Positions 3,707 to 62,258 of a stretch of 64,000 bases of DNA are shown piece by piece. The notes under the pieces were generated by a model that was not told the origin of the DNA, searched no databases, and worked only from the letters and a program-made list of their open reading frames with translations. Location of the stretch: NCBI RefSeq assembly GCF_964204645.1, contig NC_134026.1, forward strand, positions 1,573,950 to 1,637,949. Reading direction: 5' to 3'. Numbering within the stretch: the stretch's first letter is position 1; the number at the start of each line of letters is the position of its first letter. The stretch comes from Tubulanus polymorphus. Its lineage: Eukaryota > Animalia > Nemertea. The position numbers were made by a program, and so were the translations under genes.

Positions 3707-6704
3707 TTACTGCGTCCTCAGTTGATAATCGCCGTTTTGCGTAATGTAACGAACCCACGGTAAAGCTTGATATCCGGTCTTCTCTATGATTTTCAGATAC
3801 CTTACCTAAGAAATAATAAGAAGCCAATAATACACAAGCCCTAGAGCAAAATGCAGTCCGTCTCATAGGTATTCCCTTTTAAGATTTAAGATTATCTTTA
3901 TTCTTGGGTGTGGAGAACCTTTGAACGACACAGCCCATTTAAACCTATCTCCTACTACCTGTCGCATTTAATCTGTGAACAATTCTTATGAATTCTTCTT
4001 TTGATGTGACATATCAACGAGACCTTTATGCGTGTTGTTAGAGAGGTATAAATCAGAGCTAACTAATGTATTACCTGGATCCCAGAAACGGTGAAATAAG
4101 GAATCTCAAATTTAACATGAATAGGTGGTTTTCCTTCAGAATCCTCTCCTTCAACGCTCGGTAAACCGAAATGTGCTCGCATCAAGTATTCTTTACCTCC
4201 CTACAATCAAACGCAGATAATTCATCAAACTGAATGCACACGACATCGCGGAAAGGATTGAAGCGTTTCACATGAGCTCTACTTACAGGGAATGATTTAA
4301 TAGTCCAGATAACATTGTTCGTTTCAGGTGAATATTTACAGCTACCGACTGTAGTTTTAAACTTCGGTGAATCGGCATCTTGCGGCACAGGAATGACTAT
4401 TTCTACATTATTAGCCGTCGACCTTCGTTTGAATTGACTTTTAGCCTTTGAAAAGCACAACGAGCATTACATTTAACTTCAAATATATAAAATCAATTTT
4501 CACATGTATGAAAAAACACTCACTTTGATCATGTATTCAACTCGACTATGTTGATGACGCTCTATAACGGATTCTACCCAGATCAGAGGTTTTACCTACG
4601 AACAAACAGATACGGTAAGTGTGAACGAGGATTATAGAACACTTGTATTTTATCAATCATCAACAAATTAGTTCAATACAACATACATGAGTGTTGAGTC
4701 GATAAGACATTAATTCGAATTCGCCATCAGGTGGAATGAACGATATCGTTCGATCGTTATCAAATCTTGACAATCGAACGCATTGATTGAACTTCACGTC
4801 TTCAAGTTCAACAGATTTACTCTTACCACCTAAACAAAGAGGTAAACGCAACGTGTAAGTAATAACAATCGGCACAAAGAATATTTCTTGATTTTCAGCT
4901 GACTTACGTCCAGTGCTTTCAAATAACACTTTATCGTTGAGACCGAGTCGAAGTTCAGGCATTCCGGAGAGATACACTCTCATTTTGATAGCACCAACAA
5001 TCTCACTACGAAGAACATTTCCATTCGCGCTGACCTAAAAAGAACCGTAACATAACTATTTGACTAAAGGATACTACATTCAATAGTGGTGGATGAGCTT
5101 AGATACTGGTATATAACAAGGTCTCTACAGATCAGTCATTCCTGGATGTACAGGGTCCCTACAGATCAGTCATTCCTGGATATACAGGGTCCCTTCAGAT
5201 CAGTCATTCCTGGATATACAGGGTCCCTACAGATCAGTCATTCCTGGATATAAGGAGTTTTAACGGAGAAAATTTAAAGTTACAAGGAAGTGTCTGCATC
5301 ACTTTCACATCCCGATTACTGTAGAGTCATAGGGACCCTGTTGTTAGATTGGTGCACGGTAGAATTTTGTTAGAACATCTGAATTTACACAGATGGTGCT
5401 ATTCCTAACTGAAAGTACTTACTAGTAGATTGACGGATTCTATAACATCAAGGAACACTTCATTCTTACGGTATTTGACTCCTTCTGAACGCCATGAAAC
5501 GGCATTCGTAACTGCCATCGGGGGCCGCGGTGCGACTTCCAGTTTATGTCCTTCTTGAGTAATGTATCTGAAATATGCAAATACGTTCATTTCTAAAAAA
5601 ATATCCAAAACTTTAAAATTTTGTAAGAGAAGACTCTCATTCACGAATACTTACTCTTGTAGAATCTTAGTATCGGTAGTTTGTGGATAACCGAAATCCA
5701 TTACTTCATCTAATAATTCATAGATTATAACGAAGTTATCTCTGATACTTTCCTCCTCGAGATCTTTGAAATATTCCACGAATACCTGAGAAAAAAAGGA
5801 CATGTTCCGAGAAATGCGATAGAAGAAAGTGAATCATTCAACTTAAAAATGGTAAGTACTTACAGAGGCTATCTTGTGTAAAAAGGAGAAAACAAGGGCA
5901 GCGTTAGCATTCTTCTTGGTTGTGGCAACCACTGCATTTTTAATCAAGGATCGTAAATACAAATAAATAATTTCTGAAGAGATTTACAGACCCATCAAAA
6001 TAACTTACACTTGGAAAAATAACGGTACAACTGAACAGATAAAAGGATACGGTATAAGTTATTATATTTGATGAAGATGAAGTTGATATTCCCGTGTTGT
6101 AAAATCGGACTGATGTTGCCTTCTTCTTCTTTATCCATTAAAAGTGGCATGAATTTATCGATGACCGTCATGTCGATGTCACCTCGATAGTTACGACAAA
6201 TCAGCACCTGAAACAGTTAACCATGATTAATAAACCTAACAATGTTCATTAAACCCGGGGTTCTTACAGATCAGATAAAAACCTTGATATATCCCTGACC
6301 CTTGACAATAAATCCCCCGATTATCTCAATGGGAGCTGTTTCCCTTTCTGAAGAGGTTCTACGTGCCACTCTTCAGCAAGAAACCAACATTTTTCAAGAA
6401 AAGCCAGATTATTCCCTGGTTTTCCCAGATCTCTAAACTGATTTCAGACTCACATAAGAAATTATACCAAAATAAATTAATCTAGACAATAATAAACAAC
6501 AAAGTTCAGTTGGCCATTAGTTCTTCACTAAGCCTTATCAATCGAGGCTTCATGGGCTGAACCAAGGTGGGCCCAGGAATAGTTCTCTAGCTAGTAGGCC
6601 CTCGTGTCCTGTATTGTGTAAAACCTAAAACGCTATAAGATTTTGATAATCAGTATTTTTACCTTGCCCTTAATGTCTAAGAAATAAACAGCTGATGCAG
6701 ACAT
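3707..6704 (-). CDS. AP1M1: AP-1 complex subunit mu-1; 11 coding exons (approx. 6704-6663, 6207-6051, 5931-5864, 5785-5655, 5567-5422, 5034-4908, 4829-4687, 4594-4524, 4446-4287, 4201-4075, 3805-3707)
   Basis: MSASAVYFLDIKGK|VLICRNYRGD ... EESIRDNFVIIYELLDEVMDFGYPQTTD ... AVTNAVSWRSEGVKYRKNEVFLDVIE ... LSGMPELRLGLNDK ... ISFIPPDGEFELMSYRL ... VRYLKIIEKTGYQALPWVRYITQNGDYQLRTQ*, near-identical to metazoan mu1-adaptin. Confidence 0.97.
5120..5252. repeat. 34-bp minisatellite, about 4 copies, in an AP1M1 intron
   Basis: Unit GGTCCCTACAGATCAGTCATTCCTGGATATACAG; CAGATCAG recurs at 5128, 5162, 5196 and 5230. Confidence 0.93.
5932..6050 (-). other. U12-type (minor spliceosome) GT-AG intron of AP1M1
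   Basis: Minus-strand 5' splice site GTATCCTTT, branch site TCCTTGAT about 11 nt before the terminal CAG, no polypyrimidine tract. Splicing restores NNLYL/VATTKKN. Confidence 0.88.
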
Positions 6705-44710: not shown

Positions 44711-47700
44711 ATGTATGGAGAAAACGTCGAGAATATTCCACCAGAAACGTTTAAAGTACCAACCGTTCCAAACATCCAAACACCGCCATCATCAGTAGAG
44801 AGCTCAATTCTAAAACATTCTACTAAAGATAACCTCATAGCTTTCTCACCAGCTCCTAAACACTTGAAGGTATGCCACAGTTTTTCAAAAGTCGGTTAAA
44901 ATCGACCATCAGTGACCATCAAAACTTCACTATTTGCAGACAAAGCAGTTTAACAGTCCTGAATTGAGATAAATTCATTCCAACTCTGAATTGTGAAACT
45001 GGGTCCCGAGTTACTTTAACCAACTTTTAAGCGACTATCCCTCGCGTGATTCTAATGTTATGTGATAGAGAATGTATTCTCCGGAAACCATGTCTATACG
45101 GTTGAAATTTCGGATAATTTTCAGGTCCATTTTTTGACGCCGAAGCAAAATTCCGTGAGACGATATTCGCCGGAAAAACCTGCGTCGGAATTATCGACGA
45201 TAGATTCACCGGATTGGTATAATTTCATCCGTGAGATCGACGATCAAGAGAAGTGGTGCGAACGCACGGAAGTAGTTACAAAACGGGATCATACTGAAAA
45301 CGTTGTTATTGCTCAATCAGTAATTCAAGAGATTATTGATAATTTACCTTTAAGGTATTATTTTACGATTATTTGAAGCTTTTATTATAAAATCTCAACC
45401 TAATCGGCAAAACCAACAGTTGATGATTTAACAATTTATTTTCTGACAGTTTCAAAGTTTTGACTAAACTTCATAATCAGAGAAATGAAAATAACACAAT
45501 ACACTGTACTGATATACAGCAATTTAAAAATGTAGATATTACTAAGGAAGGAAACTGTTATATCTTCAACTATAGGTTTTGCTCATTAACTTGGAAACAC
45601 TAAGATTATCGTAATAACAGTCTACCTGTCAAAGCTCAACTAGTACTAAGACTACATTATGTTATATCAGAAAATCTATTATTATGATTATAATTAGAAG
45701 CATGTATCTCCAAAGTTTTGGTTTATTTTCAGAGATTCAGCGAATAAAACCGGTCGTTTAAGTGATTTGAGTAACGACAATTGTGACACAACAATGGCCG
45801 ACGATGACGAAATCATTCCGCCGAAAGCTTCGTATAATTTCAACTTCGACGACATCGATTCGATCGATCCGTTCACGTCGAGTAAAGGTTTAGCTAATTC
45901 TCCGCCGGCGTCGTCTGCCGCGATAATCGAGAATCCGTTCCAGACGAAATCGAAGGTGTCGTCATCGCCACCGCCGGACGCCGGGTTTCACGACGATAAT
46001 ATAAATCCGTTCGCGAGCAGAAGACAATTACCGAACTCGCCGCCGCCGCCGACGATGAAGGGTGATATTACGAGCGAAGAAATGTCGAATTCAAACGTTG
46101 AGAATTCTTCGTCGTCCTCGTTGAAAGGTTTTCAAAATGTAACCGATATAAACGATAATGAGAACGGTAATAAAAACGGAGCCGCAGCCGGAATGGATAC
46201 GAGTTGCACCGGTTCGGATTTATCAGTGAAATCTGACGACAGTAAAGCCAGTTCTACCGGATCTGAGTAAGTATCGTTAACACGATAATCTGAGGCAATC
46301 GGTGGCAATCTGTCTACTGTACTGACATTTTATTGGACTTGGTACAGGGTGGCCACGTACCTGGAAATCAGGGAATTTTGTATAAAGAAAAAAGTGAAAA
46401 ATCAGGGATAAATCGGGGAAATTTCATTGCCAGGAGATTGCTAGAATTGATTGGATTCTTAGCAGATCAAGTCAGGGAAAACAACGTGCAGTCAGGGAAA
46501 AGTCAAATCAGGCCATCCTGTTTTATGTTCATACCAGTGCATGGTATATTATTCTTGTCTGTTATGCATGGGATTATTATTTTGATATTACGGAAATAAT
46601 GTAGTCCACATTTAGGCTAAAAAATCTGATACCTTGTTTCTCCTAATTGGCCAATAAACGACAATAAAAATTAGTAATCAGTTCATTTCTAAAGCTGCCG
46701 GTCTATTATGGTTAGCTTGATCATGATTGCAGAGGGTAGATAGGCGGCCGGATGGTTAAACTTTTAAGCTCAGCAGATGGAGAAACGAGATATCAATTTT
46801 TTTTAAGCCTTAGCATAGATGTTTTTCAGGGAGCAATGATCATGTAGTAGGTCATTTTGTATTATTAGGTTCTAGTGATTCTTTTTAATTTGTATCAACA
46901 TTTCACTCGATGTCTCATATTTGTGGTGCCGTGTTTTTTGCATTGTAGAAAAGTTGTCAAAAAGAAATCACCACCGAAAAAGAAGGGCCCTCCGAAGAGA
47001 TTCCTACAAGCAAATAAGGTGATTATTGATTATCGGACACAACTGAAAAAAATAATACTGGAAATAAGATGCCATGGTACATGACATAGACAGGGTTCTT
47101 AAAGATCAGGGAATTTCGACTCTATTTCTTGAAAGTCGGGGAATTTGTATTTTTGGTTCCTTGTTGTTCTTATTGGTGATGAGCATTACAAGAAATAACC
47201 AGGGAAATTATCCATCAAAGGTCAGAGTAATATCAGGGGATTTTGGATTCCCAAAAACTAAATGATTCCTTGTTTCTCCTAATCGACTGGGTCACTTTAG
47301 TAAACTGAATTGCGAATTTGACCCGGCCTGAATAAATTATATTGCTAATCAGGCCGGGTCAACTTTTAAGCTCAGCAGAAATGAGAAGGTGTCAATTGTC
47401 AGTTTCAGCCTAATCTGTTAAATCCCTTCATAGACGTTTGAATATTAATTTATGTGGAATTATTTCAGAATTTTCTCGCTGCGAATCAAGCAAACGACGA
47501 TGTCATCATATTCGATCCGAAGTCGAAGCGTTCTTCGGCCGCGGCATCTGATCGAATGGAAACGTCGAGTACGGCATCGGTTGCGTCCGATGCCGCGTCG
47601 GAGACCGGTGAATTACCGAGCTGTACCGCGGCGTCGACCGTCGCGAAGGAGATCGTTTGCGACGATTTCGACGCGTTGCTACGACCGACTAAAGACGTAC

Positions 47701-50700
47701 AAATAGCCTCGATGACCGAGTTCGATACAGCTGGCATTTCCGTGTTCTCCAGTACAGTGATGAGTCAGGAGGGATTGGGATCTTTTTCCGAAGACGAATT
47801 CAAGTCTGCGACGGAAGGTAAGCATCGTAATATGTGAACGGACCCCGTGCTGCACCAGCTATCCTGATCCTGCTAGATGATGCGTGTATCAATAGGACAA
47901 ATCAGTTTTGAGGAATTTTCATCTATTAGCCTTGCACCTTAGAAATAAGACAAATCATGTCTCTTCAAAGACTCGCGTTCAATGTTTATTGCGCAATTGT
48001 TATCTGTTATATGTACGTATTGAATTAAAAAAATCATTGATAGATTTTGATTGAATCTGAGAAGAAATCCAGGCGTCACTTTGAGCATGTACCTGGTAGA
48101 TCCTCGCTTGCCTCACACAGAATCCTCAACTGCCACAGTCAACCGTAGAGTCCTCATTGAAGTGAATTAAATTCTTGCAATCGCGGTCGTTCGATGTTGT
48201 TACAAAGGTAGAAATTATTAGTAGCAGCTATCTGGTGCAAAATGCTTCCTGGTTGTGTGAGTGTCATGTTTGTGTGTGCTGGTTCTCTTTCAATTGTTCA
48301 GTCATGGTTTGTTGATTATTTGATGGCAATATTTCATGAAATCAAATCACTATCTATTATAGCCTTACGTAGTGTGTTTGCTGTTGATGTGTCTACTCAA
48401 CTCTTAGGCAGTTACTGTCTACGAATATCAAACCAGGTCAACTGCCTACGAATTCCACGAAAAACAAATATCATTAACGCTTTAAAAGGGATATATGTAT
48501 GAATCATATATAAATACTAGTTATGTATGGTAGTTGTCTCCGTTGTGAGGGCATCATTAGGATTGTAATGAGATTAAATAAATGGATTATCTCCGTGGAT
48601 TATCTCGATATGTAGAAGAGACAGGTGCTGTTTCGTACTGATGTCCGATATATTTATACATCGATAACCGACAGCTGTGAAAACTCTTGTGCCCCTTCGT
48701 TAGTTTTTTACGTGTTATCAATGGCGGTCACAGTTTTAAGCTGGTTTTCTTCGCTGATCTATCCTTCATTGCTCACGTCTATAGTAGCCGTGTTGGTCGT
48801 ATTAGGAATCAATGCTGTGAAATGGATTTCAAAAGGTACGTAGGCGATTTTATAAAAATAGATACGACATTGAACTGAGCTGATGAGTGATCTCATAGAA
48901 GGGGGTTGTGGGCGTACAAGGATATGCCATTAGTTTAGTTGTTTGGTAGTTTACTCGATGATATGATAGGCTTCAGAAGTTTTCTAGTTCATGATCATTT
49001 GTCAGTCTTTAGTTTCTGATTTGAACTAAAGGTGGCGGTCGGTGTTGCGTATGATTACCACCAGTTGAGTTGTTTTGATGGCGTCAATGCTCGAGTGCAT
49101 TATTGTATAAGTCCGTGACACGATTGTATTGATTTTCTGTTGAAGAATATCAATGAGTTTTGTTTTCTGAAATGACTGATATTTATTTGTACATGATTGA
49201 TACTGTCGTTGTGACATTGTATCGGAAATCATCAGCCTGTGACTCGAAGCAGTTTCAACGGTCTACCGCTTCTAAGTAGTATTATTGTCCATGGTTTGAA
49301 TTTCACTCAATTTCTCATGTTGTCATTGTACCCATGCCAGTGTTACTGTACTTGTGAAGTGTTATTAGCGAACCTTTTTGAGAAACACAAATTCATGGCT
49401 TTGATAACAAGTAAGTCATTTGACCGCTGAAAGAAGTTTCATGTTATCACCGTTGATAAAACACTATATCCTTGTTGTGACGATAATATACATAGAATCC
49501 CACAACGATATGAAACGAAAAACAAAGTCCAAAAATGTTGTCTAGAGCCAGTAGTTGATTCAACGTTTTGACTATATTCTAATAGTATTCCTAGTATTAA
49601 TATTAGTGGTATATCGGTATAAACTACTAACCCTAGGATACATTTCCAGACATATTGTCTTTCGATACAATTGTGGGATTCTTTCTATACTAGGTTAGAT
49701 ATATCTACCTTTCCCTGTCTTGTTCAAATTTTCATCTGAAGGGATCCCATTCTTAGGTCAGACTTCAGGCGCTATGTGGCGCTAGTGTTATTATGGTTAG
49801 GTTAGTTAAACCTATATTCGAACATATAAACTGTAGTTGCTGTATAGTAGCCGTTGAAATAGATGAATGTCGATTGTCTGTTTGTTATTCTCATTGACGA
49901 TGCAGAAACTGTCATCTCTCCGATCAGAGAATGCCTGAATATCTATCGTTAGGCGTTTAGTTAAAATTCTGGCGTCAGTAAGATATGTTTGATAGCGCTG
50001 GGCTGCGTGGAGTAGCTGCCGTACTCTGATTGGTATTCTATCGAGATAAACCCGATCTAATCTGATATCGTGTTGTAAACGTTCTCCGGCGAGGATGATA
50101 AAGAAATTTTTCTCACGTAGAAAGAACATTCTGCCCGACAACAAAGCAATAAGTGATAATTCAGTGTTTTTATCAGTTGTTGCATTGCGAAATCATTAAT
50201 AATCTCTACAAGCGAAGGGGACTCGTCAGACCATTTGTGTTCACGCAGTAACTTTGTTTATAGCTTCAATTGAGAACAATTTTTTATGTGCATTTATTTT
50301 TTTATTGAAGTTCCCGGCGAGAAAAAAAGGTAAAGATCGAAATGATATCGGATTGTGATCGCAGTTCTACGGATCAAGGAATTTCGAATTTACCATTTCT
50401 TACACGGACAATCAGGGAAACTTGACTCTTTCCTTGAAAATCAGGGAATTTGAATTGTGATGACTTGTACTTGCCGGTGATGAGTGGCACAAGGATCCTC
50501 TTGATAAGAAACTTCCCCTGCTCTGAGGATATCTTAATTTAATCAGGGACTTTTGGTCTTGTGTTAGGGAAATATCTGAGAATATTGGATTCTCTGATCC
50601 ATAAGAAGCGTAGATGTAAAGTTTCTCTGGCATAAAGATCGAAATGAAAGCTGATTATAATCCACAGCGTTTGGTAGTTATAATTCTCTAGAGTGGATGT

Positions 50701-50757
50701 TGTATGTTGTACATTGTCGGGTGTTTAACCACTGTGTGTTGAGATCGTTGGACTGGT

Positions 50758-50825
<68 letters not shown>

Positions 50826-53800
50826 CGCTCTCTGTCTCGTTGTTGCGGTTAATGCGCGATGATCGTTGAAACTACTCGCGGAATCGAACCTTGTTTAGAT
50901 GGATACATCCCTCACGGTGGTGACAACGATGAAACGTCATCTCTACGTTTGATAACGGTTCGCCCCCCTGCGTCTCGTCCTGCGGCGATCTGTAGAATGG
51001 ATTTACGCGGTTTCTGCGACTGTTTACTGTCATCAACGTGTATGATTTTGATGGTTCTATCGTTTATGTCGCCGGTTTTACTGTATATGATAATCGTACT
51101 GGTACGGTGGGCGTAGTAACGATGATAAACACCGGCTATTGTTCGGTGAGGCCCGCGCCGTGCCGCTCTCGTTTCACAGGTCGTCCTCGCTCGTTCCGGT
51201 TTCAAGCAATTGTGGATAACGCGCGGTTGAAAGGAAAGACGCGAGACGCGCCGATGAAGTCCACCCAGCCCTGATATCGTGATATCGTCGAGTTTTATTC
51301 GATTTTTATGCGTCTCCTCTCGAGTGTTTACAGCATCATTAGTTCGTTCGTGTAGTTATTCCCCGACGGCCGTCTTCGTTTCATCGAAATGAAAAATTTA
51401 TGCATTCGCACTTTTTGTTTCTGTAGATAGAGTTTAATTACGTGTATTTATTTTCATAAAATGATTCTTCAGTTTTTCGTTAACTTTTTTGACGAAACGA
51501 TCGAATCTATTCGAGAGAATTGATTTAAAAAGATTCAATTCGTTATTATCAAAATCCACGGAAACTGATTGCGATCGATCTACGCGGCTTGACAAGCGGA
51601 AAGTACGCGTGGTCCTCGTGATTGCGTGATCGGTGAATCACCCGTGATCAGATTGATGTGAATCGTTGAATTGATCGGCGGACAGTGTTTAATCAGTGTT
51701 GTATTCTCAGTGAAGATAAAGCGATGGATTTTCATGCGTTCTGCGACTGTTTGTTATCTTCTACTTGTATGATATTGATGGTTCTATCGTTCATGTCCCC
51801 GGTTTTGTTATATATGATTATTGTGCTCGTTCGATGGGGTTGAGACGACGATCTCCGCGCGTTTATATCAAACAGGTGAATATAATAAATACATCGAGTT
51901 CTCATTTCCGATCTAGAATCGACCAAGCGCTTCGAGTCTGCGCTTAATTGGTCCGTTTCATTTTTTAACAGACCGGTTTAAACCGATCCAGATCCATTCT
52001 AAATTTTAGAATCGACAATTTCTTAATGTATGAATAAAAAGTCGTCAGTGTTTAATCTTGGATCGGTGATGAAAGCGGATTTAAAAACAAAGTGTCAACG
52101 CACAGCATTGATTTGGTCTGTTCTAGATCGATTATTAAATTCAGGTACGGGCCGAATCGGAATGGACTAATTACCGAATCTGAATCTGACTTGTAAGTGT
52201 TGTTTCATGCTTTTTTTTCAAGGAACTGTTGTCCTTTATATTTAGAAGCTGGCTTTTGAGCTTCTTTGTACAACTGGATTGGTGTTTATCCGATCAAATC
52301 TGTACATCAGTTATGATTGTGGCATTTGTTTCTTAATCCAGTCTTGATTGCGATTTCATATTTCAAATGCTGAAATTGTAAAATATGTAGTTTGTTAGTT
52401 CAGGTAAATCAGGTTTGACCAGTCCAATTAGATCTCATTTCCCACTGAGAAGATGAATCCCGGTGTTTCAAAATTCATAATTCACATTAATGTCAGGATA
52501 CAATAATAGGCATCTACCGTTTGGACAGATACGTCTCTGTGTATGGATAGCTAGTGATATTTGGTATTGCGTATGTCAGACAAAGTGACGTTATTCAGGA
52601 AATCATTCTGTCACCGAATGAGTTCGATACAAATAGTCATCGTAATGAGAATGTGGAGTCACGCGGCCGAGCATTATTACTGATCACCAAATCAAATATA
52701 GACGCTTCACTAAGTACTGTTTACGTATGCATGGGGAAAAATATATACCGCGCATAATTCCCCGGGCTAATTCACTTAGCATCGCCTTCATCGGTCAGCA
52801 GCACATTCATCGGTCAGTCATCTAGCAGCACATTCACTGGTCAGTCATTTAGCAGCAGGTTCACTGGTCAGTCATCTAGCAGCACATTCACTGGTCAGTC
52901 ATTTAGCAGCACGTTCACTGGTCAGTCATTTAGCAGCACGTTCACTGGTCAGTCATCTAGCAGCAGGTTCACTGGTCAGTCATTTAGCAGCACGTTCACT
53001 GGTCAGTCATCTAGCAGCACGTTCAATGGTCAGTCATCTAGCAGCACGTTCACTGGTCAGTCATTTAGCAGCACGTTCACTGGTCAGTCATCTAGCAGCA
53101 CGTTCACTGGTCAGTCATTTAGCAGCACGTTCACTGGTCAGTCATCTAGCAGCAGGTTCACTGGTCAGTCATCTAGCAGCACGTTCACTGGTCAGTCATT
53201 TAGCAGCACGTTCACTGGTCAGTCATCTAGCAGCAGGTTCACTGGTCAGTCATTTAGCAGCACATTCACTGGTCAGTCATCTAGCAGCACGTTCAATGGT
53301 CAGTCATCTAGCAGCACGTTCACTGGTCAGTCATTTAGCAGCACATTCACTGGTCAGTCATTTAGCAGCACGTTCACTGGTCAGTCATTTAGCAGCACGT
53401 TCACTGGTCAGTCATTTAGCAGCAAGTTCACTGGTCAGTCATCTAGCAGCACTTTCACATTGGTGAAAAGTGCAGTTAAAGTCCTACCTGAATTGGTCCT
53501 GTCCATTTTAGAATAGAAGACAAACAAAGAATTCTGATCCAGGTTTATTCAACAATTTTGAAATTATCATGTATGGATAGTGCAGGTCTGGTTTGGTTCA
53601 TTCTAAATTGGTCCATTCCTGATGCGGCCCGAATTAGAACATACTAACATCATGTTCTTTACTATTTCATCATCAATTGAAAGGAATGCACAGAATCAGT
53701 ATATTGATGATAGGGACATGTGAACAGTGCCTGTATAGGCTGTACGATCGCTGGGACTTCAGACTCCTTAAGAGTTACAGTGAGGAATTGTGTGAACGTG

Positions 53801-56800
53801 GTTCATGATTATAGGGCTTTATTCTAATTGTAGTGTTATGAAATGGGGTATTTTACATAGATAGTCAAAAATATATCTTATTATTATATGTAAAATACCC
53901 CATTATGAACTTGCAGGAGCCTCCAGTGTCTGGTATATTCATCGCTCATTCCATATACTAGTAGTTAGTTAATAAGGCAAAATAAAGAGCGGCAGTTCAC
54001 AGTAAACGCACCTCCGTGTGATGATTGGCGTTGATTGAATGAGGAAATGAAACAATTATTAAGAATACATCGCGGTGTTGGTCGGGTTTGCTGGTGATGT
54101 ATTCTCGCTCAACATTACCGCTCATCTATACTCTGCCTGATACAATGTATTGTCAGAGAGAGACACAGAAAGACAGAGAGTTGTGCAATTCAATATTTTG
54201 ATTAATGATGATGTTAAATCCACCAGTTGTGGCGATGCTCGATTGATTTTATTTTTCTCGTCGCCGCGCGTTACATTACTCGAAGGGGATACGCGCTTAT
54301 GAAAATTTATTCATTCGATTTCGAAAACTGATAAAACTGTCGGTGGTCGGGTTTTTATTTCAAATTAACTTTGTCTAATCAAATCTATAGCAGTGTGAGT
54401 CTGAGTGTGTGTCTTCATCCGCGGTGTTTTTATAAAGCATGCATTGCATGCGGTATTTCTCGAAAAAATATTTATTAGCTATCATCAGGGGGCTGTGTTC
54501 GTTGATTAGGACATTAAGCCTGTCACAAAATATCTCATTTGGACGAAGCAAACATCGCTGTCAAGTATTCCCTCGACTATTGTAGTGAAATGCTGCCCGG
54601 TAATTTGCTTTTAAGTAATAAAGTGTCCTTCAATAGCTGAATAACTGCTGACCGTCGATTAAGTATCGGAAGCTTTTATATCGTGAATCAGTTGTGAATT
54701 CTCGCACAAGTGTCTATTTGTATGAATTCAAATCAACACTTCACTCACATCAGATGAATTGGTTGTTTGTCCGGTGTAACAGTGTCGCTGTATCAGACAT
54801 TGAATCTAGAGGATCCGATGAAACTGGTGGCGTCTTGGAGTTATCAGGTATCAGAGAATCGCTATGGTTACTGTCTCAGGGTATTGCCACGTTAACTAGA
54901 CCTGTATCAGGGTATCATCGTGGTGTTTATCAGGGAATCGTCATAGTAACTGGCTGTATCAGGGAATTGTCATGGTAACTGGCTGTGTCGGGGATCAAAT
55001 CTGCCATCATTGAGTTAGATGATTATTGTATTACTCGTTTTCGTAGAATATAAAAATTATCGGAGTGTGATCAATAATTATCTGATCTGAGTGTGATCAA
55101 TGATTTATTCCGGTTTATCCAACACGCGAATGATATTTACTATCATCATCATCATCATCGTCATCGTCATCGCTGGCAATCGTGACTGAAATATAGCGAG
55201 TCGAGTGAGTGAATGATTCCTCGTTGTCGGTCTCTAAATGAAATATTGTATCGTCGACTCTTGTTACATTCGATAGGCTCATCAGCTGAGTAGAGGCAAG
55301 AGGCGCGCACAAGAGACGTTTTGATTGCTGAGGTACGCGAATCATCGAACGTCTTCCGTTTAACTCCTCGTCTATATCCTCGTGTATATCCTCGTGTGTA
55401 TGTGTGCAGAATTGCGACTTGTTCATGTGCAGGTGATTGATGATAGAAATAAAGCTGTGTTCGGATTCGTTGACAGTCGACAAACAGACGACTGTAGCAC
55501 GCGAGCACGCAGACACTGAAATGGATTCAGTATCAGGAGACAATGTGTCTATATCTACAGGTGACTCAACCCGGTTTAATCCGTGAATGATGACTGAACT
55601 ATTTTATCCCGACGGAATCATAAACATCATAAACATCCCGTGGCTAATTTACGCTCTCTCTGTCGATAGTTGAGCCGAAAGCCGGTCGTTTGCGATGCCG
55701 TATTTTTCTAATGATTGTAGCTACACGGCGACGTTTCTCGTCGACGGACATCGTTGTCGATCTCGGCGGTCGTTTCGGATTTGACGCTGTTTCGATACCG
55801 ACGTCGGTTCGACGACGGCGGGTAATAGACAATCATCGCTAACTTTTGGCCCGGTCGACTCGTCCCTTCTGGGACTAGTTCGCTGCTGCTCGAGGATAAC
55901 AGCTCCGAAGATCCGGAAAGCGTGGAACTGTTCGAGTTTAGTTCATGCGGTGATATGCCGACAGGATCGGACTCGGTTCACGTGTTAGTCCCTAGTCGGA
56001 CTAGCGATTGTTTATACGGACGGTATAGTCCGTATATCTGTTTGCGTAGTAGTTTACAGTTAACATGTACCTGTGTGTTAGTGTTATCGTTCATGGCTCC
56101 TATAATTCTCTATATTACGTTGGCTTTCCTCAACTGGCCGTAGGTAAGCCGGTGTGTATGTTTGTCACTTTTATCTTTCGTCAATCTTGATTGTCTTTTG
56201 TAAAAACTGTTACCCGTACATAATGCGGTTATCTAATGCTGAGTAGTCGATGTACATTACGTAAGTCATCAATATTGGTGTTTCAAAATAACGATAACAA
56301 TTGCGTGTATAAGCATTTATTATGTAATTTGATAAATGACTCTCTATTTCCTAATTATTGAATTTTCATGTTTTTTAACCCTTTCAGTGCGTCTACACTG
56401 CAGTGCAGTGTATTAGTCGGTGATGGACTAGTACTCCGCACTGCGTTGATATAATTAATAATGCTTAATTACTCATCACCGAAAGGGTTTTAATAGCAAG
56501 GTTATATATGTAATATAATTTATATATTCATTCTTTCATTTTGCAGTGTTCAGCGATCCGTCAGCATGGGATATGCTAGAGAAGTTTGGTGAGGGTAATT
56601 CTGATGTACGTATATTCGGTATTCAGTGTGAGTTCGCTGTGTTCGGTGTGATTTCCATCCATCGAAATAAAAACCCACAATACGAAATAACATGATTTTC
56701 ATCGCTCGAAATGTTGCCTGTATTTATGCGTTGATACAGAAAATGCCGTTGATGAATTCGACTTATGGATAAAGCCATGCGTTGAAATGTCTCGGGAATG

Positions 56801-59800
56801 ACGACTATTAACTCGCATTAGGGATTTCTGTAATTCAATTGTAGACAAATGATCGTGATGAAATTGCGTTATTGATTGCGCTTTATACGAGTCTGCGGGA
56901 TTAGCTCGCATCGAAAATTTATGAAGACGGCCAAATCATATTTACTTGAGACTGCCGATTTATTCTAAAGTTTATACAAAGCTGAAATTTGATATTCAAT
57001 CGGTTGTTAAATTACTGTGTTCCTCATGTCATAATCTTCAGTAGAAACACAAATATCATTGCTTTGTATTTGAATTTGTTGTCCAAAATCACGGTTATGC
57101 CACTCAGACTGCGATGTTTATTTTGTGGGTTTGTTAATCGTGTCTTATTGTGTTTTTTTGGGGTTATTTTTCTTTGCAGAATCCCGATTCCGCTCTTACC
57201 CGGCAATCGCTGTACGTAAAGTTCGATCCATTAGTCCAGGGAGATGATAAAAGTCCCGGCAATGTCGGCGTTCTTCCAAATCCAAGAGTACAAGGTAAAG
57301 TCCCTCGTGTAACCTTGTGGATAACTTAGATTCTTAAAGAATTGGCCAAATATCGAAAGGAAACATTTTGCTCCTTACGTCAAACATTTTATGTTTGTAA
57401 TAATGATCACATTCGTTTGCATATAGACTCCATATAAACTACTAGACTGTCTTGTTAAAGAGAACATAATAAGCATGATGAATTTTATCAATTTTACTAA
57501 GAGAGAATCTCTGAAAAGTGACGAAATTTACATAAGGGAAAGATAACGACAAAGGCCTACTAACGATAGGCCTAGTAAAAATTGGCAATGAATATTGAAT
57601 GATGTGTTACTTTCAGGACTGGCGAAGAAGACAAGTAACAGCCAACTGGCTTCACTTGCAGAAAAGTAAGTATCATTAAGGGACGTAACTGTGGTCATAG
57701 TCTTAAACTATTAGTTTTATGGTCTCGTAGCTCCTCATTTATCTAATTGGATAACAGTTGTTGATCGTATCAGTTGTCCGAGTGGTCAGTTATATCTGAG
57801 AGGGGGGCCGACCTTGCCGGTTATATATCGACTTCATTTACACAGTATGACGACGACGCAATGGTATATATCTCATCTCGTTTCAGCCCGAATGCATCGG
57901 TTTATAGCGAGGATCTTCTATTGATGAATACACCACCTCCTAATAAACCACTATCGCGTCTTAAACAACTGCAAATGGGTCAATCGAGACTCGCCCCTCA
58001 ACAGCCGGCCAGCGATCTAGATAATATTTTGACGTGTAGTCCAAAACTCGATGAAGAGGTATGTATATTAAAGCGTCATACATGTATTCGCAACAAAAAT
58101 CAATTTTATCTTCCCCGAAACTATCCGCTGACTGCACACGCGCGCACAGAGTACCGGTATATGGTAGGAATAATAGTAGGAATAAATCTCTGAATCTGGC
58201 GTGTGAATAGTGCTTGTTTTATTTCACATGACTGCGTGTTGTCATATAAAATCCTCTTATGTATGTCTGACTTATATATTCCCCTAGATCATTATTACAC
58301 GGAGATTATCATCCGTCCGTCTGTCTGTAAATCATAGAGAAGATTTCTATTACTTTTCTAAAACACAAAACTCATATGAGAATCATTAAGTTTTATGCTG
58401 TTTTTAGTGTTTTATCTGGTAGAAAAATTCAGGCTTCAAGTCGCAGTTTTGTCTTAACTGCTGAAGGAAAACATATTTTGCTTATTCGATCTGATTTATT
58501 TCACCTGACCGTCATAACATAAACTTATTTCATTCTAAATCGTTGATGTTACCGTCAATGTTGTTTTCTTCAACGGAACCACCGGGGCACTCTATATACA
58601 TATTTGTTTGTTTTTACCTCATGTGCATCAGACATGCCATTCTGATTTAGCGATCGTAGAACCGCCCGAGTATTCAACTCGCGCCGCCGCAGCCGCCGAC
58701 GAGTGGGTCGAACAGATCAACAGTTTTTCCGAGCTCGAGGATTCCGCCGCTTTGTCGCAAGATTCGCTCGAGTGTATATCGTGTACGTGGGGCACGGAGA
58801 CCGGCCGACCGGATAGTCCTCTACAATTCGACCACGACGAAGTCGTACATATAGACGTCTGTGATAGCATTAGCGAATTGAGAGATGACACAGATGTAGG
58901 TTTACGCTCTACTAACGGCATTCATCCTCGTAATTCTAGACGTTTTGATAAACAGCCGACTACGATTGGTTCACATCGTTCTTATACGCGTCAAACCCAT
59001 TAATCATACATAACGTTTGTAGTAAAATAGCTACGATCAGACGTTGAACGCGTTATATACAAATTCAAAAGATTTAAGTAGAAATTTATGTATCAAGAAT
59101 TAAGATCAGAAGTGATAACGTTTCTGACTTTCACTAGAGACCTGTGTCGGGTCCGAAATGTTGTGCGTATCTTCTCATTTTAATTCTTGATAATCGATTT
59201 TTGATTTCAATCTTTTACAATGTATACAGTGGATTTTAACCGTATCATTGATTATTTATATTTATCGCTAGCTTGAATTCGACGAGAATAATGTTTTGGG
59301 GTTGATATTCCTTCCTCGTGCTTAATGGCTGAAAAATGTGCTCCAAAAGCAGACGGCTGTTTCACTGGATTTTATGTTCACACCTCTGGCATGGTTGTTA
59401 GTTCTTCGACTGCATGGTTTCCATATTCGTCTGACCCGCTCTCTCTACCTCTACCTCTTATTTCGAGCTACGTTCATTATTTTTGTATGTCTGATGCTGT
59501 CGTCGTTTTCGTTTTCTTTCACATTCATTTTGTTGAAATCATGGTCTCGGAATATCAAATGTTCTTACGTGTAGCGTGTTTAAACAATCGGTTCCATTTC
59601 CTCAGATGTGTAAAATTTTACTCTCTAACGCGTTTCTGTCAACTACGAGATATCTCGTAGTTCCATTTCAGCCATCATTGTCACTATGAGTTGTTGTAGG
59701 TGATCCTTCTTATTCACGGTTTGATATGAGCTCTCTGGTAATCGGAATGACACATCTCCCGATTGACTGGCAATGTGAATAAAATCTGCTTCATTTTCAA

Positions 59801-62258
59801 TACTCATTGATCAACTTATGAAAATGGCTGACTATGAGATAACTTGTAGTAGTGACTGGGAAGAAAGATGGTGGCAGTGAACGTGTTGAACAGAGTTAAA
59901 CCCGTTCATATCAATTTGACCCTCAAGTCAAACTGCCGAACTGATCTCACGATTCTTACGCAACATTTCTCAAACATCACAACCCATCTGTTGATTCGAT
60001 AGGTTAATTTAGAAATGTTTCATCGTGGTATGACATTGATTTAGTCATTACAACTCCATAACGGCACATGTTGTAATAATAAATCAAGAATCTGCGTGAA
60101 ATCGAATTAGACAATGCCTGAATTAGTTTCGTATATTCGTAACAAACTGAAATATTGTTGATCATATATTGATTATATGTATATATCTAACAGTGTTTAA
60201 ACTAGTACATGTATACTCAGGGATCAGTTATACTGATTTATTCCTAAAACCTGGAAATCTATCTATGTGGTATGTTTTTCTATCATTTATACATCTAAAG
60301 GGGTACATTGTAAACTACTTTGAATTAATCTTTATGTATAAATGTAAACACTCATTGCTTTAGTTTGTAAGGGTTCTAATCAAATATTTTAAGTTTCATT
60401 TCATTTATCATAGTTTTGATTTGCAATCCCTTTTATATTCTCTCTATTAAATGCTTTGGTGTTATGTTAGTTAAAGGATGTTGTTAATTATTTGTGACTG
60501 GGTCAATCAATTCTGGTTTTCAGTGCTATGTGGAGGCCATTTATGAGTAAAATGTGTTTTTTCAAATGTCGCAATCAACAAAGCGTAAGATATCAGATTT
60601 TCTGAAATCCTTTTTTGGCCTGTCTTTGCTGCATTTTTGTAACAAGTATTTTCCAGGTGAAGTTCTAGTTTCATGGTACTTCTGTGTCAGTATTCTATTC
60701 CTGCCAAAATGCACAATGCTCTTCTGTGCCTTATGATAAAGAAAATTCACATCTTTCATCCACAACCATATCGCTGGGAACAAGTTATTATTTTTATTGA
60801 ACTATTCATAAATCATTGGATCATACAGAGTTGATAGTTGTCCGTGAAGTACATATTCACCACTAATAATCTTTATAAAGTTTACTTGTTTTGAATATTA
60901 CAGAACCAAACAGACAGTGGTCGTCCAGAGAGTGAGACGCCTTCTAAACATGATTCCGTCGAGCCATCGAGAGCGGGAACCGGTATTGTTGAGGTATGTA
61001 ACCCCGGTAACCAATAGTGGCTTCAATTGTGCGACCAAAATAGAGGAATTACTATCTAATATAACGTGTATGCTTCAGGTCTTGAAATACACAGAATCCG
61101 ACTTCAAAAAATTAAAGCAACAAATGGAGATGGACTTCCAAGCGCAGTTATTGGCTAAAGAACGTTCGTGCTACAAGAAAGTGCAAGATTTGCAGCAGGA
61201 AATTGCTAAACTTACTGAAGAAAATAAAGCATTGTCAGAATCAGTTGATAACATGACGTAAGTAGCTTTATTTCTATCGATAGACTTCGCTACCGAGTCG
61301 CCATCTACCGAGAAAAATGAGTAGCTTTAAAGTAAAATGTGTTTTCTTTTCGTTTTACAGAAAAGTGGTCGCTGAATATGAGAAAACTATATCCCAAGTT
61401 ATTGGTAAGTTAAGGGTAAATGATACGAGTTATCAGTTATGTCGTGTTTATAAGTCTAATAACTGTATTTTTTCAATAGCTGATAAAGAAACGGTCAGCG
61501 CTTCTTCGGCTGAATCAATGACAGAATTAATTCAGGAACGAAATCATCTGATGGAAAGTTTACAGTCGATGGAAAAAGCATTTTCAGATATGTTGAAACG
61601 ACACGACAGGTCGAAGGAGGTCGTTGAGAGTCAAAAGAAGGTCGGTTTATAATAACTCTCATTGTGTACTGGTTTCCCACCGCTGTTCGATGCGTTCCTA
61701 TTTCAAGTATCAATGTTTAATGTTTTTAGAATGAAGAACAACTGAAGAAATGTATTACTGATTATCAAGAGAAGATGAAGAAAGCAGAAACGAAATACCA
61801 GGCGCTTAAACGGCATGCTGAAGAGAAATTAGTAGCGTAAGTACAGAGCTTGTCGTTAATGGAAATTTGAGCATTTTTAACCGCATTTGGATGGATTTAC
61901 TAACCTCATCAGGTTCATAGATTAGTTTAAACAACGTTCTTTGCCTCAATATTTATGGCCTATCTGTGTATGTTGTTTTTAGGGCAAGTGAAGAAATAGA
62001 AAAAGTGACAAAAAGTAAAGATAACGAATTGACGCGGTTACAATTAGCCGTGAAGAAATCCGAGGTTCAAATTAAGAGCTTAGAAACAGCTGTCGCTCAG
62101 AAGGTAAATTCACCGTCTGCCGTGCGGCATCAAATACTGAGCTGTTTCAAGCGGACATATTTTTACTGTATTGCTTTCGATTTCAGACGAAAGAAAACGA
62201 AGAACTGACTTCAATCTGTGATGACTTGATTTCACAAGTAGGAGGTGGTGGAAGCTAG
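44711..62258 (+). CDS. TACC: Transforming acidic coiled-coil (TACC) family protein; exons approx. 44711-44869, 45125-45353, 45733-46266, 46949-47018, 47469-47817, 56547-56605, 57180-57294, 57617-57665, 57887-58058, (58632-58895), 60904-60993, 61079-61257, 61361-61404, 61480-61640, 61730-61836, 61983-62103, 62187-62258
   Basis: TACC3-like N-terminus ([12 protein letters not shown]...LK|VHFLTP); SDP-type repeats ([13 protein letters not shown]...SPP); the Aurora-A/clathrin segment EFKSATE|[15 protein letters not shown]...[15 protein letters not shown]; and a C-terminal TACC coiled coil ([53 protein letters not shown]). Intron phases agree where checked. Confidence 0.93.
48721..48835 (+). CDS. 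Candidate alternative first coding exon of TACC encoding a hydrophobic leader ([38 protein letters not shown])
   Basis: The ORF ends at donor AAAG|GTACGT in phase 1, matching the phase-1 acceptor at 56547 (giving ...[13 protein letters not shown]). Contains a long hydrophobic stretch. Confidence 0.5.
50761..50835. repeat. (CT)n microsatellite just upstream of micro-ORF copy 1
   Basis: About 30 CT units. Confidence 0.95.
50997..51116 (+). CDS. Hydrophobic micropeptide copy 1, 39 aa ([39 protein letters not shown]); may extend upstream to an in-frame ATG at 50859
   Basis: 35/39 aa identical to copy 2, with 16 synonymous and 0 non-synonymous codon differences over residues 6-38. Confidence 0.75.
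   Translation: MDLRGFCDCLLSSTCMILMVLSFMSPVLLYMIIVLVRWA
51724..51843 (+). CDS. Hydrophobic micropeptide copy 2, 39 aa ([39 protein letters not shown]); below the ORF-track cut-off
   Basis: Paralogue of copy 1; start and stop positions are conserved but the flanks are unrelated. Inr-like TCAGT at about 51693 and 51707; donor CAG|GTGAAT at 51875/51876. Confidence 0.78.
   Translation: MDFHAFCDCLLSSTCMILMVLSFMSPVLLYMIIVLVRWG
52790..53452. repeat. 27-bp minisatellite, about 24 copies, in the large TACC intron
   Basis: Unit GGTCAGTCAT(C/T)TAGCAGCAC(G/A)TTCACT. Confidence 0.96.
55955..56143 (+). CDS. Hydrophobic micropeptide copy 3, diverged, 62 aa from ATG 55955, ending ...[30 protein letters not shown]
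   Basis: Aligns without gaps to copies 1 and 2 (LxxTCxxxxVLSFMxPxxLYxxxxxxxWx*). Its TAG is followed immediately by a consensus donor GTAAGC at 56144. Confidence 0.65.
   Translation: MPTGSDSVHVLVPSRTSDCLYGRYSPYICLRSSLQLTCTCVLVLSFMAPIILYITLAFLNWP
56379..56487. mobile_element. piggyBac-like MITE
   Basis: TTAA|CCCTTTCAGTG ... CACCGAAAGGG|TTTTAA termini. Confidence 0.6.
58632..58895 (+). CDS. Candidate alternative TACC exon: 264-nt symmetric cassette, or a terminal exon to the stop at 59003
   Basis: Acceptor TTTTTACCTCATGTGCATCAG in phase 0 after KLDEE; GC-rich acidic open frame ([14 protein letters not shown]...ELRDDTD); donor GAT|GTAGGT in phase 0. Confidence 0.55.

Follow-up and report, generated by a model that had tools for sequence, protein, structure and literature searches.

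The window analysed here is a stretch of 64,000 nucleotides from the genome of the nemertean Tubulanus polymorphus. Exons between positions 44711 and 62258 encode P0001, a protein of 836 amino acids that carries the source name "uncharacterized protein" and is 100% identical to the product of the window's exons. P0001 is a member of the TACC family: it matches PF05010, the C-terminal TACC coiled coil, over residues 640-828 (E 2.6e-49) and PF25777, the Aurora-A binding region, over residues 439-482 (E 6e-12), the latter region being interrupted by an intron at V448. Mapped onto P0001, five coding exons of the long isoform on the forward strand (44711-47817) account for residues 1-447, and the last of them carries F442 and ends in a phase-1 donor at 47817. 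An intron of 8.7 kb, the subject of this study, leads from there to a shared TACC exon (56547-56605, forward strand), which has a phase-1 acceptor and carries F449, and ten remaining shared coding exons follow on the same strand (57180-62258), with S477 in the exon 57180-57294 and the TACC_C coiled coil at their end. The shared exon contains an ATG in the TACC frame at 56573, as had been stated in the original prediction, and 7 nt ahead of it an out-of-frame ATG at 56566 (A at -3, G at +4) that opens an ORF of 8 amino acids. Far upstream in the window there are exon-like ORFs at 727-2892 on the forward strand and at 4663-5034 on the reverse strand, which from their translations we take to resemble XPF/ERCC4 and an AP-1 mu subunit, respectively. 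A 154-codon open frame at 58539-59003, acidic and protein-like, lies inside a 2.8-kb TACC intron and is skipped by the X2 joint 58058>60904; it is a possible further alternative exon. At 56374-56492, 55 nt upstream of the shared acceptor, lies a short element of high copy number whose inverted ends make it look, by eye, like a MITE.

Five sequencing runs were available, none of which is on record as RNA. One of them, X2, was read as RNA from its GT-AG joints at the P0001 exon borders, the kind of sample not being recorded; X3 and X4 stem from the same sample as X2 and have no joints among those listed, and all junction evidence is that of one run and one sample. This evidence consists of contigs, in which rare forms are dropped, cover is patchy and transcript starts are not shown, and contig depth was left out of any isoform ranking. 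Over 47700-57300 the four X2 joints listed are 47817>56547, 48835>56547, 51875>56547 and 56605>57180, and ten further GT-AG joints agree with P0001. The acceptor at 56547, which is also an exon border of P0001, is used in three of these four joints; it is real and receives at least three upstream exons. Exons foreign to the long form join the shared exons in two cases (48835>56547 and 51875>56547), which is the arrangement of short TACC forms made from alternative promoters. A further run, X5, guessed to be RNA, contributed one contig that is less than 90% alike and aligned to two coiled-coil exons only. Under the same species label it differs from the TACC coding exons at 11/64 and 5/43 letters (60902-61404), which suggests that the label is shared by a different species or a cryptic one.

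The position of the shared acceptor bears on what a short form would retain. In an alignment to human TACC3 (PDB 5odt_B; E 0.046, backed by PF25777), F442, F449 and S477 correspond to F525, L532 and S558, and the shared junction at V448 falls between F442 and F449. TACC proteins are established as soluble adaptors of the spindle and centrosome, as the available part of one study also describes them; the same part reports that the Kd of TACC3 for Aurora-A rises from 5.7 to over 150 uM upon the substitution F525A, and places the clathrin-binding part with S558 downstream of the docking site (PMC5897774). Because the shared acceptor splits the docking motif, short forms whose TACC part begins at 56547 would be without the F525 equivalent, the main docking residue, while keeping the S558-equivalent phosphosite and the coiled coil. 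The earlier expectation that a short TACC keeps the Aurora-A site together with the coiled coil would hold as far as the RQSL phosphosite and coiled coil are concerned, but half of the docking motif would be lost.

One alternative upstream exon lies at 48351-48835 on the forward strand and is spliced into TACC by the X2 joint 48835>56547. Its 5' boundary at 48351 is the end of a contig rather than a mapped start, and a TATA-like word at 48507 might put the true start further downstream. From ATG 48721 this exon encodes 38 amino acids with one predicted transmembrane segment (KD19 2.39) and, through the phase-1 donor at 48835, joins TACC in frame to give a predicted product of 427 amino acids. 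Among 28900 control positions, only 14 are the end of an in-frame ATG ORF with KD19 >=2.0. The ATG has a T at -3 and is preceded on the contig by nine others, and the anchor ORF contains two variants, of which one is synonymous and the other changes Val to Ala. The 427-aa form is the best-supported short TACC at this locus and, since its spliced N-terminus holds a putative transmembrane segment in frame, it is predicted to be tethered to a membrane. The anchor exon was also considered as a paralogue of the micropeptides described below and rejected, as 1751 and 2639 of 5000 shuffles scored equally. Donor-like sites at 52144, 55560, 49410 and 56260 likewise end in-frame ATG ORFs in the TACC phase (38, 40, 31 and 8 amino acids, respectively) and are possible extra first exons or chance occurrences.

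Further into the intron, three copies of a micropeptide are encoded on the forward strand, each with one hydrophobic stretch (KD19 2.5-2.6) and predicted to be a single-pass membrane peptide. Copy 1 (50997-51116, 39 amino acids) has no good donor adjoining and sits in an X2 contig that is unspliced across 50959-51444; a donor at 51145 was rejected for this copy, as it scores 1.8 and is crossed unspliced. Copy 2 (ORF 51724-51843, 39 amino acids) lies in an exon at 51427-51875 that is spliced to TACC by the joint 51875>56547. Copy 3 (55955-56143, 62 amino acids) is homologous to copies 1 and 2 by tblastn (E 3e-7, with 0/5000 shuffles reaching the score); its N-terminus is unrelated to theirs, and its sequence has a three-codon insertion peculiar to this copy. 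Copies 1 and 2 are separated by 21 synonymous and 4 non-synonymous changes (pN/pS 0.054, p 9e-15), their flanks are not conserved (14/60 and 8/40), and five of the six variants of sample S2 in these two copies are synonymous. For copy 3 the pN/pS is 0.46 against copy 1 (p 0.003) and 0.55 against copy 2 (p 0.015). Judged by these substitution patterns, the peptide is a real and selected product, with purifying selection in all three copies that is strong for copies 1 and 2, as would be expected of a conserved-peptide uORF or a bicistronic smORF. A possible decayed fourth copy on the same strand at 52162-52245 matches copy 3 weakly (tblastn E 7e-4 within the window); it begins with Met-Asp, has a stop at codon 3, and is followed by a donor-like site at 52403.

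Several features of the surrounding sequence were observed in passing. Some 160 bases ahead of copy 1, at 50753-50838, lies a long (CT)n microsatellite that could be a promoter mark. The region 52758-53516 is a tandem array with a 27-bp unit that is open in two frames, and one X2 contig has 52017-53600 replaced by 30 other letters, possibly a deletion allele or a repeat artefact. As for the extent of the copy 2 exon, its contig overlaps that of copy 1 by 18 bases, and copies 1 and 2 could lie on one common exon; alternatively, copy 2 may lie on an internal exon, because its contig starts directly after an acceptor-like AG (51426). An AATAAA occurs at 51884, and X2, with its patchy cover, has no contig behind the donor 51875 that would show its use.

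Searches for relatives of the peptide returned little. Pfam at E up to 1 assigned no family to copies 1 and 2, which gives no membership by profile in the sarcolamban/regulin family, and for copy 3 gave a weak unrelated match. In collections that are thin in animal small ORFs, there was no candidate homologue of 22-70 amino acids, and none of 26 longer candidates matched at E up to 10. Three matches among 1.84 billion representatives were rejected, all being tandem-repeat ORFs; an Atlas search gave no usable match for copy 1 and one unnamed match (0.76) for copy 3; a metagenome pattern search yielded 152 matches with 0 confirmed; and 0/5 window peptides were present in an exact-match collection. 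Since such collections contain few small ORFs of animals, these blanks are not proof of novelty.

That a single mRNA could hold both the micropeptide and TACC, as had been proposed for copy 3, is borne out for copy 2 by the joint 51875>56547, there without any overlap of the two frames, but not for copy 3; among the three copies, only copy 2 has a downstream ORF observed on the same mRNA. No ATG in the TACC frame is open to the copy 2 donor. In the spliced form, ATG 56573 lies 58 nt past the copy 2 stop, and from the copy 2 start to this point eight ATGs are encountered, one of which (56566) is strong and overlapping. Translation of TACC from this mRNA looks hard because of these eight ATGs and the strong out-of-frame one at 56566, which by its context is predicted to handicap ATG 56573, and the peptide would be the main product of the peptide-plus-TACC mRNA. 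Reinitiation and nonsense-mediated decay are described as alternative fates of such uORF mRNAs in the available part of the literature (PMC10275272).

Copy 3 was brought to attention by its end, which reads TGG CCG TAG and is followed at 56144 by GTAAGC, so that the stop abuts the predicted donor; this feature of 55955-56143 is correct as originally described. Donors were scored with a matrix built from 13 RNA-supported donors, which themselves score 6.6-11.8 in-sample. The donor at 56143 scores 8.3, inside the range of the 13, and ranks 4th among 620 GT sites (48836-56545). It is probably real, because among 854 TAGs on the forward strand the copy 3 stop is the only one followed by a donor at least as good as the weakest of the 13. 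The abutment had been put forward as the stronger clue, and it did lead to a credible donor, yet the exactness of the fit adds little: for a donor that lies no more than 60 nt from the stop, exact abutment has a rough chance of 0.16, and it needs little extra explanation because the TAG itself supplies the AG that precedes 8/13 supported donors. Nor is it a family trait, since the copy 2 donor lies 32 nt past its stop. A stop at a donor gives no protection from nonsense-mediated decay when further introns follow, and with ten more introns downstream the abutment in copy 3 would not shield its mRNA. Two ways of fusing the peptide to TACC were rejected, namely the use of a donor at 56139, which is out of frame and scores 4.8, and readthrough of the copy 3 stop, which would join phase 0 to a phase-1 acceptor.

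Whether this donor is used remains the point on which readings of copy 3 divide. The joint 56143>56547 is absent among the four X2 joints listed, in a run with patchy contigs that by bin arithmetic has no cover over 55926-56222, an interval that X3 and X4 do cover; this blank does not prove that the joint is lacking. Copy 3 might be a stand-alone or fading peptide gene whose donor is a decoy and which is not joined to TACC. Its constraint is weaker than that of copies 1 and 2, its N-terminus is unrelated to theirs, three unverified GT sites in the intron outscore its donor, copy 1 already does without a good donor (51145 being the poor site crossed unspliced), and decay within the family may have a precedent in the putative fourth copy. 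Against this stand the singular position of a donor-grade site behind one of 854 TAGs, the splicing of copy 2 to the very same acceptor, and the lack of any AATAAA or ATTAAA between 56143 and 56560, which make a decoy improbable in our view.

The second proposal for copy 3 concerned a frame that overlaps the peptide. In the -1 frame (56060-56143, forward strand), ATG 56065 is followed by 26 open codons and one leftover G, as predicted, and joined to 56547 it would yield an ORF of 415 amino acids in the TACC frame. The original prediction saw in this a 1-in-3 event and, in the peptide ORF, an overlapping uORF that gates TACC: ribosomes leaking past 55955 would start at 56065 and make the 415-aa protein. 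A good donor at the stop, the open frame, the A at -3 of this ATG with only two earlier ATGs counting from 55829, and the fact that a start at 56065 would bypass the strong out-of-frame ATG 56566 speak for such a gate, as does a Phe six residues before the junction that matches the position of F442 in the long form. Yet a stop that abuts the donor already fixes the TACC frame, and the estimate of one in three does not apply. When copy 3 was recoded synonymously 20000 times, 57% of the resulting sequences had an in-frame ATG with no stop before the donor, 42% had one at least 26 codons upstream of the donor, and in 85% the -1 frame was open for at least 26 codons. The frame is commonly open because hydrophobic codons seldom create stops there, and in copies 1 and 2 no stop interrupts its 39 codons either; among eight other donor-like sites tested in the intron, four also have an in-frame ATG. 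The Phe alone is found in 37% of recodings and the combination of ATG, purine at -3 and Phe in 8%, a figure for features chosen after the fact. The ATG itself, formed by ACA-TGT (Thr-Cys) in copy 3, is absent from copies 1 (ACG-TGT) and 2 (ACT-TGT), and between copies the -1 frame has pN/pS values of 2.9, 2.1 and 1.6, compared with 0.054, 0.46 and 0.55 in the peptide frame; the overlapping 26 residues also reach a KD19 of just 1.07 against 2.5-2.6 in the peptide copies. In these comparisons, which are among paralogues only, the second frame and its start are neither conserved nor rarer than chance. ATG 56065 is near chance expectation and is likely a chance by-product of the peptide sequence, and since all three X2 joints into 56547 moreover skip copy 3, a selected second frame gated by the peptide ORF finds no support and appears unlikely.

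A wider version of the idea would make the whole intron a switchboard of N-termini, in which the anchored TACC could tie microtubule plus-end machinery to membranes, other exons make the membrane peptide on TACC mRNA, and copy 3 supplies a replacement docking Phe, this single exon thereby giving the peptide as well as a short TACC competent to dock. We hold it to be decidedly unlikely. Least of all do we expect 56060-56143 to be an 84-nt in-frame cassette by which long or anchored TACC would gain 28 residues of the -1 frame within its docking motif for Aurora-A: the acceptor-like AG at 56059, which falls in the insertion peculiar to copy 3, does score 7.7 (supported acceptors 5.1-14.8; top 10 of 469 AG sites), and the segment is divisible by three, open and in phase 1 at both ends, but the X2 contigs from 47817 and 48835 run straight to 56547, the -1 frame is unconstrained, and the pyrimidine-rich codons of a hydrophobic peptide would imitate acceptors.

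The reading that we consider probable, if by no means assured, is that several alternative upstream exons are lined up in the TACC intron and lead into the acceptor 56547, that copy 3 is likely another of them with a membrane peptide as its product, and that ATG 56065 is likely a by-product. Under this organisation the upstream exons would start from internal promoters, and the peptide exons would borrow those of TACC for their 3' portion. The peptide would be the main product, with TACC reached at a low level by leak or reinitiation past ATG 56566. Where TACC is not translated, the peptide mRNA, with ten introns downstream, would be open to nonsense-mediated decay.

Such an organisation has counterparts in known systems. 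For human TACC1, the available passages describe short isoforms that arise from variable start sites and alternative promoters; the nemertean locus resembles it in having one TACC gene with long and short forms, putative alternative first exons and common coiled-coil exons, and differs from what those passages describe by its predicted anchor exon and three selected micropeptide exons (PMC8665927). Drosophila sarcolamban, wurmchen1/2 and sloth1/2 are presented, in the accessible part of their description, as bicistronic or polycistronic transmembrane smORF genes, which the peptides resemble in being small, duplicated and predicted to be single-pass, and in having their ORF on an mRNA with another ORF (PMC11475943). 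Unlike in those fly genes as far as that text portrays them, the partner ORF in Tubulanus corresponds to the 3' half of the gene for a large spindle protein, and the peptides, of which copies 1 and 2 have no Pfam match at E up to 1, are predicted products, as is the TACC that would be made from the same mRNA. With the dual-coding mRNAs of TP53BP1/SEP53BP1 and POLG, in the accounts available, the locus would share an alternative promoter, overlapping frames and leaky scanning or reinitiation as the proposed route; unlike there, the overlapping frame in Tubulanus is unconstrained and its ATG is missing from the other two copies. Compared with TACC3, the three residues align with their counterparts, whereas an intron with alternative exons lies between F442 and F449, and the short forms would resemble a deletion of the docking site as the available part of that study defines it (PMC5897774). 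A literature search, in which most subscription papers were out of reach, brought up no paper on a membrane-anchored TACC or a TACC-linked micropeptide.

Taken together, the locus is a variant on known kinds of gene organisation, with two oddities that are supported by RNA, the anchor exon and the presence of peptide copy 2 on TACC. If true, a dual-frame gate at copy 3 would represent an uncommon mechanism, and the present evidence treats it as chance. The micropeptides are an unannotated family under strong selection, at least one copy of which is carried on TACC mRNA, and the splice point at 56547 gives natural forms of TACC in which docking of Aurora-A would be uncoupled from the phosphosite and coiled coil.
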